Positions 2,356-52,804 of a DNA stretch of 64,000 nucleotides are shown piece by piece. The position numbers were made by a program, and so were the translations under genes. The notes below the pieces were generated by a model. The model worked only from the letters and a program-made list of their open reading frames with translations. It was not told the origin of the DNA and made no database searches. The DNA is from a virus (Duplodnaviria; Caudoviricetes), in the IMG/VR virus record IMGVR_UViG_3300020379_000218, positions 45,564 through 109,563 of that record. One strand, 5' to 3'. The first letter of the stretch is position 1; each line of letters starts with the position of its first letter.

Positions 2356-3040
2356 AATATGGGAAATGCTAGAGCAACACACTCATAGCATTATTGCAAA
2401 TTTTGAAAGAGAAGGTGAAGAAATATTTGAACCTACAATGAAGAAGTTTAATAGACCAGAAGAAGGTTGGGTCAATAGAGTATGGGCAACACCAGAGGCA
2501 AGAAGATGTCATTTAGATGTTGTTGACGCTAGAGACGAAAAAGGTTTATATATGTTTCATTGTTGTGTATTTCCTAAACTTACAAGTACTGCGCCAATAT
2601 ATGGATTAGATGTAATCGCTGGTGCAAAAAAGGTTACAGGTTTCTTCCACGACTTTTCGCCACTTGCAAAGAAAGACCACTCAATGGTAGATTGGTTTGT
2701 AAAAGAAGCAAGTCTTTATACACCATCAAAACCTAGACCATTACCTGATTGGGCAATGAAAATTTTTAGTCCAGGTATGATTGCAGCTGGTAATATTAAT
2801 ACAGAAAAAGAATTGACACAAGCATTAAGTATGGCACAATCTAACTTAGGAGTTTATTTCACTTTATTAAGAAGAGAAAAAGAACAAGGAGATATACAGG
2901 AAATAAAAGACGCACAAAATAGATACGCAAAACATCAACGAGAAAATCCTCATACTCCTAGAGTTATGTTAAGTTTAGGATTGCCAGAAGATGATGTTAA
3001 AGAGTTTTGTTCAGACGCCTTATTCCCATATGTAGAATAA
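2339..3040 (+). CDS. pcyX: Ferredoxin-dependent bilin reductase, PcyX-like
   Basis: WVNRVW, RRCHLDVVD, HCCVFP, PIYGLDVIAG, FHDFSP, QNRYAKHQRENPHT motifs; sits between hemO and hemA. Confidence 0.85.
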   Translation: MERRSRIWEMLEQHTHSIIANFEREGEEIFEPTMKKFNRPEEGWVNRVWATPEARRCHLDVVDARDEKGLYMFHCCVFPKLTSTAPIYGLDVIAGAKKVTGFFHDFSPLAKKDHSMVDWFVKEASLYTPSKPRPLPDWAMKIFSPGMIAAGNINTEKELTQALSMAQSNLGVYFTLLRREKEQGDIQEIKDAQNRYAKHQRENPHTPRVMLSLGLPEDDVKEFCSDALFPYVE

Positions 3041-4233
3041 TGGAACATTTAGATAAATTTAAGGCAGTAATAAAAGATTTAAAAGATGACGGTAGATACC
3101 GTGTCTTCAATGATATTCTACGAACTAGAGGCGATTATCCTAACGCAATCTGGTATTCAAAATACTCAATCAAAAAAATAGTTAACTGGTGTTCAAATGA
3201 TTATCTAGGTATGGGACAACACTCTTATGTGCTAGATAGTATGAAAACAGCACTGGAGACGAGCGGAGCGGGCGCTGGAGGGACGAGAAACATATCCGGC
3301 ACTACTCACTATCACATTGCTTTAGAACACGAATTAACTCAATTACACAAGAAAGAAAGTGCGTTATTATTCACTTCAGCATACAATGCTAATCAAACAA
3401 CTTTAGAAACAATGGGCAAGATTATGCCTGACTTGTTGTTTATATCAGACGCACAAAATCACTCTTCAATCATACAAGGTTTAAGGCATAGTAAATGTAG
3501 AAAAGAAATATTTAAACATAATGATGTACAAGATTTAGAAAGTATATTAATGTCTAACCCAGGACCTAAATGTGTTGTATTTGAAAGTGTATATTCTATG
3601 GACGGTGATATTGCACCTGTAAAAGAAATTGTTGAAGTATGTAAAAAATATAATGCAATAACTTTTATAGATGAAGTACACGCTGTTGGTCTTTACGGTC
3701 CTACAGGTGCTGGTATTTGTGAGAGAGACGGTATTGAAGTAGATATTATTAACGGAACATTAGCCAAGGCCTACGGTGTACAAGGTGGATACATTGCAGG
3801 AAAGAGAGAGTTTATAGACGCAATAAGAAGTATGGCAAGTGCGTTTATATTTACAACTAGTTTATCTCCAGTATTATGCGCTGGTGCATTGACTAGTATA
3901 AAATATGTCAAAGACCATCCTGAATTAAGAATGAAATTACAGGAGAGAGCATTAAAAACAAAAGAAGAACTTGAAAGAATAGGTATAGAAGTGATGAAAA
4001 ACGATAGTCATATTGTACCTGTAATTATAGGTGACGCTAAAAAATGTAAAGCAGTTTCAGATGAATTACTTTACAAAAATGGTATCTATGTTCAACCAAT
4101 TAATTATCCTACGGTTGCTGTTGGTACTGAAAGATTAAGATTTACTCCAACACCATTTCATACAGACGCAATGATATTTGATATGGTAGTTAAAGTAAAA
4201 TCTGCTATGAGAAGATGTGGCAATAAGAAATGA
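3040..4233 (+). CDS. hemA: 5-aminolevulinate synthase (Shemin/C4 pathway)
   Basis: NWCSNDYLGM, GAGAGGTRNISGT, DEVHAVGLYG, GTLAKAYG (PLP Lys), YVQPINYPTV; TAATG coupling to pcyX. Confidence 0.95.
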   Translation: MEHLDKFKAVIKDLKDDGRYRVFNDILRTRGDYPNAIWYSKYSIKKIVNWCSNDYLGMGQHSYVLDSMKTALETSGAGAGGTRNISGTTHYHIALEHELTQLHKKESALLFTSAYNANQTTLETMGKIMPDLLFISDAQNHSSIIQGLRHSKCRKEIFKHNDVQDLESILMSNPGPKCVVFESVYSMDGDIAPVKEIVEVCKKYNAITFIDEVHAVGLYGPTGAGICERDGIEVDIINGTLAKAYGVQGGYIAGKREFIDAIRSMASAFIFTTSLSPVLCAGALTSIKYVKDHPELRMKLQERALKTKEELERIGIEVMKNDSHIVPVIIGDAKKCKAVSDELLYKNGIYVQPINYPTVAVGTERLRFTPTPFHTDAMIFDMVVKVKSAMRRCGNKK

Positions 4234-36233: not shown

Positions 36234-36267
36234 TGGAGAGAGGTGTAGTGGCCTCTCTCCACTTTTT
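36234..36267 (+). terminator. Intrinsic terminator after cobS
   Basis: TGGAGAGAGGT-gtagtg-GCCTCTCTCCA followed by CTTTTT. Confidence 0.75.
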
Positions 36268-36295
36268 CACACTAGAATAAATATGAAGGATAACT

Positions 36296-37424: not shown

Positions 37425-37634
37425 GTGGGTATACTAGTAACCGTTCGTAATGGTAACTTGGAACAAGCAATGAGAGTGCTTAAGAAAAAAGTTGCTAAAG
37501 AAGGTTTAGTTAAAGAGCTGCGTCAACGACAATACTATGAGAAACCTAGTGATAAGAAAATCCGTAAAAAGAAAGAAAACACTAGAGCGTGGATGAAAAA
37601 GCAGAAAAAACTAAAAGCACAAAGAGGATATTAA
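37425..37634 (+). CDS. rpsU: Ribosomal protein bS21
   Basis: VTVRNGNLEQAMRVLKKK, RQYYEKPS; AGGAGG RBS, GTG start. Confidence 0.93.
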   Translation: MGILVTVRNGNLEQAMRVLKKKVAKEGLVKELRQRQYYEKPSDKKIRKKKENTRAWMKKQKKLKAQRGY

Positions 37635-37675
37635 AGAATTTGTCCTCCTCTCTTATGAGAGTGTATATATAATAT

Positions 37676-37851
37676 GTTAGGCTATTCGTAAGACCTAATG
37701 AGGACAAAGGGTGCCGTAATTACCCAATACAGATAGAGTATTAAATACGGTGTCGCTAGAGTTTTTTTGGGGTGTCCCTGTGGTTCTTCTCTTTAAAAAA
37801 GAACCTAAAGCGCTGAGAGTTTTGGCAGTATACTCTTTAAAGAAACTGCCA
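37676..37851 (+). ncRNA. Putative structured ncRNA with a 5' hairpin and three H-type pseudoknots
   Basis: ORF-free gap with nested complementary pairs (see findings); TATATATAAT element at 37664-37673. Confidence 0.55.
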
Positions 37852-37858
37852 CTTTAAT

Positions 37859-38080
37859 ATGAGACGAGAAAAGAAGTTGAATGAATTTGATATTGAGGCA
37901 AAGACTTCAGGTGGTGCAGTATTTGAGTTAGGTGTAAAAACCTCTAAAGAAAGCACAGCGATTAGAAGACTTGCTGAACCTTTAATGAATAAACATTGGA
38001 AAGGTCAGGTAACTAATTTACATAGAATATATAAAGTTGCCGCCTATCTATTAAAAAGAAGTAAAAGGCTTGACAAATGA
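37859..38080 (+). CDS. Hypothetical protein
   Basis: 73-aa ORF; weak RBS. Confidence 0.5.
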   Translation: MRREKKLNEFDIEAKTSGGAVFELGVKTSKESTAIRRLAEPLMNKHWKGQVTNLHRIYKVAAYLLKRSKRLDK

Positions 38081-38101
38081 GATATAATGATTATATAAAT
38101 A
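38070..38101 (+). promoter_or_regulatory. Composite sigma70/late promoter for Hsp20
   Basis: TTGACA(38070) and TATAAATA(38094); leader hairpin GAGAAC...GTTCTC (38107-38128). Confidence 0.65.
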
Positions 38102-38163
38102 ACTATGAGAACGCCATAATGGGTTCTCTAAACATTAACTTTGCTTAACAATAGGAGGTTACA

Positions 38164-38610
38164 ATGACCAATCACAGAGCAATTTCATTTTTTAACAATT
38201 TAAGACCTATGACCGTAGGGTTTGATGATGTATTTAATAGTTTTGAAACTATGTTAGATACTACAGACTTCGGTAATAGAGTCCCTAACTTTCCACCTTA
38301 CAATATCGTAAAGACTGGAGACTTTACTTACGACATAGAGTTGGCATTAGCAGGATACTCAAAAGCAGATGTATCTGTTGATTATGCCGATAGTGTTTTA
38401 TCTATCAAATCTTTACATAAAGACGAAGATAGTAAAAAAGGTCCTGAGGTTATACACAAAGGTATTGCGAAAAGACATTTTAGTAGGTCTTTCACAATCG
38501 CTGATGATGTAGAAATCAAAGGTGCCGAACTCAAAGACGGACTTTTAAAAGTCAGTTTAGAGAAGATTGTTCCAGATAGTAAGAAACCTAGAACAATCAA
38601 AATCAAATAG
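38164..38610 (+). CDS. hsp20: Small heat shock protein (IbpA-like)
   Basis: FPPYNI, IELALAG, HKGIAKRHFSRSF, AELKDGLL. Confidence 0.95.
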   Translation: MTNHRAISFFNNLRPMTVGFDDVFNSFETMLDTTDFGNRVPNFPPYNIVKTGDFTYDIELALAGYSKADVSVDYADSVLSIKSLHKDEDSKKGPEVIHKGIAKRHFSRSFTIADDVEIKGAELKDGLLKVSLEKIVPDSKKPRTIKIK

Positions 38611-52727: not shown

Positions 52728-52804
52728 GGCCTCGTAGCTCAACTGGATAGAGCACCAGTCTTCTAAACTGGATGTTGCAGGTTCAAGTCCTGCCGAGGTC
52801 GCCA
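52728..52804 (+). tRNA. tRNA-Arg (anticodon TCT)
   Basis: Acceptor GGCCTCG/CGAGGTC, D arm GCTC/GAGC, anticodon stem CCAGT-CTTCTAA-ACTGG, T arm GCAGG-TTCAAGT-CCTGC, encoded CCA. Confidence 0.96.

Follow-up and report, generated by a model that had tools for sequence, protein, structure and literature searches.

Ribosomal proteins S4 and S15 autoregulate via mRNA pseudoknots, and the leaders of the E. coli S4 alpha operon and the S15 rpsO gene share with the RNA described here a conserved pseudoknotted structure beside a small-subunit ribosomal-protein gene, as well as a basic RNA-binding protein encoded next to the RNA. The S4 and S15 operators lie 5' of their genes, overlap the ribosome-binding site and mimic rRNA, whereas the S21-trailing RNA lies 3' of the stop codon, has no detected rRNA resemblance, and its binding by bS21 is putative. 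To our knowledge, no bS21 operator of this 3' pseudoknot kind is known. Among T4-type phages, the gene 32 mRNA pseudoknot, which serves protein recognition and mRNA stability, is likewise an H-type fold in a phage transcript beside AU-rich unstructured RNA, but in that case one pseudoknot occupies the 5' end of the gene 32 message, while the S21 RNA is 3', consists of several domains and shares no sequence with it. Viral xrRNA arrays and bacterial terminator/REP stabilisers, which resist exoribonucleases or protect 3' ends, would be a further parallel, as compact pseudoknotted modules conserved mainly in shape and frequently present as tandem duplicates in the untranslated ends of viral RNAs. 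However, the ring-like fold of xrRNAs carries defined signatures and stops Xrn1-type enzymes that degrade 5'-to-3', whereas the S21-trailing RNA has an additional sequence-conserved domain. The manA (RF01745) and wcaG (RF01761) RNAs of marine cyanophages are, like this one, conserved structured RNAs of marine T4-like phages established by comparative analysis alone, but their folds and gene contexts differ and no Rfam match connects them. Finally, the HK022 putL/putR and Bacillus EAR RNAs, which act in cis, are structured RNAs between genes of one transcription unit, as is the S21-trailing RNA, which differs in having no sequence or structure match to them and no sign of terminators to override.

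The window analysed here is a 64,000-nt stretch of a 109.5-kb IMG/VR record (IMGVR_UViG_3300020379_000218) from a T4-like, SAR11-type phage of the ocean, and around the S21 region it is about 75% identical in nucleotide sequence to the Pelagibacter myophage HTVC008M. The bS21 (rpsU) gene of the ORF list (37425-37634, + strand; Pfam PF01165, E 1.1e-17) closes a four-gene block that is preceded by a strong terminator-like hairpin followed by CTTTTTCA (36234-36261). A late-type box, AATAAATA (36276-36283, + strand), lies 3' of this hairpin, with three small + strand ORFs between the box and bS21. The gap between bS21 and the next gene, a 73-aa ORF (37859-38080, + strand), is 224 nt long and holds the RNA; the TAA stop of bS21 is 4 nt upstream of the first RNA helix. 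The 73-aa ORF is outside the RNA, between it and the hsp20 promoter, and has no Pfam match and a weak helix-turn-helix match to phrog_5497 (E 0.006).

The 5' domain of the RNA (37639-37708, + strand) consists of an outer stem, P1, that encloses a small hairpin, P1b, an AU-rich bulge and a hairpin, P1a. P1 pairs TTTGTCCTC (37639-37647) with GAGGACAAA (37700-37708); the optional P1b pairs 37648-37652 with 37657-37661 and changes from CTCTC/GAGAG to CTCAC/GTGAG in one relative (L014). The bulge spans 37662-37676 and includes TATATATAAT (37664-37673), and P1a pairs TTAGG (37677-37681) with CCTAA (37694-37698) around the loop CTATTCGTAAGA. Across the family, P1 is a 7-9-bp stem with a 5'-side AU-rich bulge of the TATATATAWTATG type, mostly about 19-34 nt long, while P1a follows the consensus GGC-NR-UUCRUAA-G-W-CC and is stacked directly on the 3' strand of P1. 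Its loop core UUCRUAAG is nearly invariant among 47 distinct sequences, in which compensatory changes occur at 7/7 pairs of P1 and 3/5 pairs of P1a. In the family variants P1 starts 0-16 nt past the bS21 stop codon, mostly 0-10 nt, and a terminating ribosome must therefore open it. The loop was considered as a possible mimic of a tRNA anticodon loop, a T-loop, 16S rRNA positions 1495-1500 or a codon-anticodon pairing, none of which fits all variants. A T4 late or sigma-70 promoter within the bulge was rejected, as exact TATAAATA or GATAAATA is present there in some lineages only and absent from the window, and no consistent -35 box was found among the lineages.

Three pseudoknots follow on the + strand. 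PK1 (37709-37751) is the P2 hairpin of the family made into a pseudoknot: stem 1 pairs GGGT (37709-37712) with ACCC (37722-37725), stem 2 pairs GCCGTA (37713-37718) with TACGGT (37746-37751), one G-U included, and an inner hairpin pairs AATAC (37726-37730) with GTATT (37738-37742). Stem 2, equivalent to P2, covaries (CCGAC/GTCGG, CCGAG/CTCGG, CCGC/GCGG, GCTTG/CAAGC). Stem 1 is the weakest element of the fold, being mostly conserved as GGT/ACC, with GGTC/GACC and GGGT/ACCC as further forms and little covariation, and absent from many relatives. The linker GGTGTCGC(T) at 37749-37757 corresponds to the family linker GGUGUCGC, of which GGnGTCGC is nearly invariant in the 47 distinct sequences. In this clade, CGCT (37754-37757) can pair with AGCG (37809-37812) and so clamp PK2; the clamp is invariant in 9/9 close relatives, and covariation thus neither supports nor refutes the pairing.

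PK2 (37758-37805) is an extra H-type module of this subclade, missing from most family members. Its stem 1 pairs AGAG (37758-37761) with CTCT (37789-37792), its crossing stem 2 pairs GGTTCTT (37782-37788) with AAGAACC (37799-37805), and loop 1 contains a mini-hairpin (37769-37771 with 37776-37778). Stem 1 occurs as AGAG/CTCT, GATG/CATC and GTTG/CAAC, compensatory at 3/4 pairs. PK3 (37816-37851) is the universal H-type pseudoknot of the family, with AGAGT (37816-37820) pairing ACTCT (37832-37836) as stem 1, TGGCAGT (37823-37829) pairing ACTGCCA (37845-37851) as the crossing stem 2, UU as loop 1 and UUAAAGAA as loop 3; both stems covary family-wide, stem 2 with compensatory changes in 5/8 pairs. 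PK2 (48 nt) and PK3 (36 nt) are non-identical modules with the H-type order S1-L1-S2-L2-S1'-L3-S2', a topology that can be read from the sequence. The pairings listed in the sequence-only reading of this locus are all present on the + strand between 37639 and 37851, and the homologues support the three consecutive H-type pseudoknots that it had proposed, crossing stems included. Its view that PK2 and PK3 are related, with stems that differ yet remain paired, holds as well: they are paralogous modules in a subclade of nine sequences. Regarding its suggestion that the loops are suited to triplexes, a U-rich loop 1 and an A-rich loop 3 recur throughout the family, which fits a triplex without proving it.

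Folding of the single sequence gave z-scores of -2.18 for the + strand and -4.45 for the minus strand. The + strand fold is modestly better than chance, which proves nothing by itself, and a comparative test was therefore needed. A covariance model was built from eight close sequences with the helices P1, P1a, P2 and pseudoknot stem 2, leaving stem 1 out, and the resulting alignment held 67 matches, 47 of them distinct. In the 47 distinct sequences, standard pairs filled 95.9% of cells compared with 77.6% after shuffling and 39-48% with slid partners, in an alignment that is model-fitted and thus favours the modelled helices. Compensatory double changes were found in 22 of the 31 pairs, and the covariation score of 0.486 was reached by 0/500 shuffles and compared with at most 0.11 for slid partners. 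The unmodelled stem 1 of the pseudoknot covaries too (column pair 167/200: CG 19, GC 18; another pair: AU 18, UA 9), and RNAalifold independently recovered P1, P1a, P2 and stem 2. When the nine closest relatives were aligned with MAFFT, blind to structure, 88% of cells could pair, compared with 32-51% for slid partners, and 10/42 pairs show compensatory changes, PK2 stem 1 contributing three of its four. Mutual information revealed no extra tertiary pairs, as the known helices alone stood out.

On the opposite strand, the roughly 65 G-U cells of the helices would turn into A-C mismatches, and the RNA is therefore read from the + strand, in the same sense as S21 and hsp20. The minus-strand RNA, despite its better z-score, is ruled out by these G-U pairs, which are workable on the + strand only. 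The gap had been described as free of ORFs, which is not strictly so, as it contains a 35-aa GTG ORF (37750-37857, + strand) and a 41-aa minus-strand ORF; it does lack a conserved reading frame, because the indels among relatives are not multiples of three. A coding reading fails for the same reason, and the frame that starts from the ATG where the bulge ends runs for 31 codons in L054 and stops after 5 in the window. With every core helix covarying, the gap is shown to specify a real structured RNA, non-coding, about 213 nt long and read from the + strand, as the earlier reading had inferred, and the comparison of S21-downstream regions of related phages that it had called for bears out the pairing.

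The common core of the family is about 130 nt long (e.g. L075:816-947) and comprises P1, the bulge, P1a, P2, the linker and one H-type pseudoknot. The subclade of the window, nine sequences in all, carries three elaborations of this core, namely the P1b hairpin, the conversion of P2 into PK1, and the insertion of PK2 between the linker and PK3, which creates the CGCU/AGCG clamp. Over the family, the RNA measures 130-220 nt and is present in one copy per locus.

A protein search of IMG/VR with bS21 yielded 80 loci, and a homologous non-coding stretch was found in almost every distinct downstream region. An S21-independent scan with a motif of the P1a loop and the GGnGTCGC linker returned at least 118 stretches. 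Among the motif matches listed, bS21 lies immediately upstream in 99 of the 113 loci analysed; the 14 exceptions are eight contig-end truncations, four GC-rich false positives, L189, in which a 74-aa ORF lies between S21 and the RNA, and L112, in which S21 adjoins the RNA too and the tblastn match is partial. The RNA follows S21 in more than 100 related phage contigs, every true motif match examined lay in an S21 context, and hsp20 is downstream in 96 of the 98 evaluable loci among the same matches. Among cultured phages, Mosig has the RNA at L245:1720-1848, and more modules follow it as far as about position 2080. Its record (MT647606) annotates 'hypothetical proteins' of 39 aa (L245:1775-1894) and 38 aa (1907-2023) over this region, and both ORF calls are probably spurious. 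HTVC008M has a reduced form (L001, about 3010-3100) after gp110 rather than directly after S21, which lacks P1 and consists of one pseudoknot and a pair of hairpins, UAGCUCGUAAAU and CUCUCGUAAAU, whose CUCGUAAAU loops are of the family type; this form escapes the covariance model.

The RNA is absent from two other S21-encoding phages, the OM43 phage Melnitz and the SAR11 siphophage Kolga. A cellular origin was rejected for the genes and genomes searched: the covariance model matched nothing next to any of 49 cellular rpsU genes, nor anything in a sample of 151 alphaproteobacterial genomes, rRNA operons included, that was taken without selection for SAR11. Because no resemblance was found in these 151 genomes, rRNA operons included, rRNA mimicry is without support. 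Within the contigs and genomes searched, this distribution shows the family to be specific to T4-like phages of SAR11.

Several further elements were observed around the family loci. In several lineages the core RNA is separated from hsp20 by additional non-coding modules, about 200-300 nt in length (L245:1850-2080, L037:990-1330 and L045:3355-3650). One module is enclosed by GGGCT...AGCCC, and another, pseudoknot-like unit is located at the end; the modules have no Rfam or ARAGORN match and are absent from the window. Downstream of hsp20, Rfam reported a tRNA of 41-44 bits at L045:4186-4256, L037:3512-3582, L039:5690-5760 and L060:2433-2503, and ARAGORN reported none at these four loci; the tRNA may be atypical or degenerate. 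A glutamine riboswitch (RF01739, 57.5 bits) is present in the related contig L072 (1071-1119), and such riboswitches have been reported in these pelagimyophages (PMC9004378).

Comparison with Rfam 15 at the gathering threshold returned tRNA-Arg alone for the whole window. Relaxed searches gave chance matches alone over the fold in an 801-nt region (E up to 10) and nothing over the RNA in eleven homologous loci (E up to 3). No Rfam 15 family matches the RNA in the window or in these homologues, and the Rfam match that the sequence-only reading had named as removing novelty was thus not found. ARAGORN likewise found only the tRNA-Arg at 52728 of the window and nothing in ten homologous loci. A tRNA or tmRNA, including the permuted two-piece tmRNA known in related phages, was rejected on the lack of any ARAGORN detection and of an Rfam tmRNA match. 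A literature search found no paper describing an S21-trailing RNA, and as judged by these searches the family is uncatalogued. It also falls outside the class of ribosomal-protein leaders, which are 5' UTRs overlapping the ribosome-binding site, as it starts past the S21 stop codon.

Turning to transcription, no promoter proper to the RNA was recognisable, and it is therefore most simply a 3' trailer of the S21 operon transcript, which we infer to be co-transcribed with S21. At the other end, the hsp20 promoter region (38070-38101, + strand), which is kept in relatives and contains a match to TATAAATA, has TTGACA at 38070-38075, an 18-nt spacer and a TATAAA that overlaps the late-type box TATAAATA (38094-38101); hsp20 itself occupies 38164-38610 (+ strand). 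In most relatives this promoter adjoins the 3' end of the RNA. The window contains nine exact TATAAATA boxes, all on the + strand. An intrinsic terminator was sought and rejected in the window, where PK3 stem 2 is followed by CTTTAAT, not by the U-tract that comes directly after the short-looped, GC-rich hairpin of such terminators, and a terminator scan reports none. Among the 93 distinct variants, 14 have a U-tract after the last pseudoknot stem and 21 run directly into a TTGAnn -35-like box, and a canonical terminator is not a conserved property of the family. The closest relative, L002 (99% S21 identity), lacks the 73-aa ORF and has TTTTTT directly after PK3. On this comparison, the 73-aa ORF is an insertion relative to L002 that took the place of the U-tract in the window. 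In L002, the TTTTTT run and 14 nt join PK3 to the hsp20 promoter.

Two further features of this boundary were observed. Family-wide, the TTGACA -35 box of the hsp20 promoter comes immediately after the A-rich loop 3 and the stem 2 3' strand, AAAAAAGTGCC (e.g. L054:1425-1460). These elements thereby hold a position resembling that of an UP-element, and selection on the DNA itself may be a second constraint on part of the pseudoknot. The 5' leader of hsp20 (window 38105-38169) has a ROSE_3 (RF02523) match of 20.1 bits, below the gathering score of 43, with matches at the same place in relatives (L019:505-571, 31.3 bits; L075:982-1045, 23.7 bits), and its hairpin GAGAAC(G)CC...GGGTTCTC covaries between loci. 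This leader may be a ROSE-like RNA thermometer that travels with the small heat-shock gene.

For the function of the RNA, we tentatively favour, well short of calling it probable, a protein-recognised 3' trailer of the S21 operon in which the pseudoknots are end modules conserved for shape only. The sequence-conserved 5' domain, made up of P1, the UUCRUAAG loop, P2 and the GGUGUCGC linker, would be the docking site for a specific protein, and the prime candidate ligand would be the phage's own bS21, very basic and RNA-binding, caught as it leaves the ribosome a few nucleotides upstream. The pseudoknots, whose number varies by lineage, would act as end-caps against 3'-to-5' exonucleases, and in lineages with a U-tract they may act as transcription terminators as well. 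Together these parts would set how long the S21 mRNA lasts and thereby the dose of S21; cleavage in the AU-rich bulge could also free a stable RNA-protein particle. The retention in HTVC008M of loop-type hairpins and a pseudoknot points to the loop as a putative autonomous recognition unit, and the duplication of PK2 and the swapping of modules would fit additive barrier elements.

The link with S21 is favoured by the closeness of P1 to the stop codon and by the finding that this type of pseudoknot is not a general gene-boundary element of the genome. Such a generic element was rejected after a scan of the 109-kb genome gave 4 matches compared with 0-4 in shuffled sequence, PK3 alone being convincing. 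Against a trailer specific to S21, the linkage to hsp20 is equally tight (96/98 loci among the motif matches listed), an ORF parts the RNA from S21 in HTVC008M and L189, and known ribosomal-protein operators sit 5' of the gene, not 3'.

In a related proposal, which we consider possible but unlikely, the RNA would be a dedicated partner of phage bS21, either as an operator or chaperone RNA, placed 3' of the gene, to which fresh bS21 would bind in cis, or as a ribosome-docking RNA. In the docking form, the RNA and bS21, perhaps with S1, would sit on the 30S platform and reprogramme host translation initiation. If true, this would be the first viral ribosomal protein to travel with its own RNA cofactor.

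A doubtful alternative is a 3' end element whose role is structural alone, a stabiliser, insulator or terminator of the S21 operon that would work without a specific protein partner and hold back exonucleases, or transcription that would otherwise run on into the hsp20 promoter. It would account for the placement of the RNA where a transcription unit ends and a promoter immediately follows, for pseudoknots conserved in shape alone and duplicated in some clades, and for the U-tract that comes right after stem 2 in 14 of the 93 variants, L002 included. However, a barrier has no need for a nearly invariant 9-12-nt loop and the GGUGUCGC linker, the other operon ends of the genome lack such pseudoknots, and most variants have no U-tract.

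Release of a trans-acting RNA or decoy seems to us improbable to about the same degree. RNase E-type cleavage in the bulge would here free a stable fragment of P1a, P2 and the pseudoknots, which would either bind a host factor (an RNase, ribosomal protein S1 or the 30S platform) or base-pair with a target by way of its loop or linker, an idea close to the ribosome/S1 decoy of the sequence-only reading. The single-stranded AU-rich bulge of about 20-25 nt between helices would suit such cleavage, S1 selects pseudoknot ligands in SELEX, and the conserved unpaired loop and linker resemble seed regions, with UUCRUAAG complementary to CUUAUGAA whether R is A or G. Nevertheless, no target was found, the loop complement occurs 26 times in the window compared with 27.6 expected, which is chance level, and the AUG beside P1a is missing in about 30% of variants.

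Much less likely is a cis-acting processive antitermination RNA of the HK022 put or Bacillus EAR kind, by which polymerase would read into hsp20 and the replication genes. A pseudoknotted intra-cluster RNA between two co-oriented genes, in tight synteny with both, is what such a mechanism would lead one to look for, but there is no similarity to the Rfam EAR or put models, the downstream sequence showed no strong terminators, and hsp20 is served by a conserved promoter of its own. A riboswitch or other ligand aptamer controlling downstream read-through or translation, one of the roles suggested by the sequence-only reading, is very doubtful as well. The compact pseudoknotted fold has invariant nucleotides, and pelagimyophages do carry riboswitches (the glutamine riboswitch of L072, 57.5 bits; PMC9004378). 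This suggestion proved weak, however, as there is no consistent expression platform, the U-tract is present in only 14/93 variants, a promoter lies ahead of hsp20, after the RNA, what comes downstream varies by phage (an ORF here, other RNA modules elsewhere) and no Rfam aptamer matches. The proposed ToxI-like type III antitoxin or pseudo-antitoxin, which has the general idea of repeated pseudoknot units alone in its favour, is effectively refuted by gene context, since ToxI is a tandem array of near-identical repeats of about 34-36 nt beside a gene for a ToxN/AbiQ-family endoribonuclease, while this RNA has bS21, the 73-aa ORF and Hsp20 as neighbours with no ToxN/AbiQ-like gene nearby, two non-identical units of 48 and 36 nt, a single pseudoknot in most relatives and no Rfam ToxI match.

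SAR11 myophages are among the most abundant viruses of the ocean, and bS21 is one of their core genes. Their "S21 module" consists of the gene plus an RNA that is tied to S21 in more than 100 contigs and missing from Rfam, which gives a tangible starting point for learning how viruses control or use their ribosomal proteins. The RNA is accessible to experiment, as cultured Mosig has the full RNA and HTVC008M a reduced form, and the family provides clean natural examples of the duplication and swapping of pseudoknot modules.
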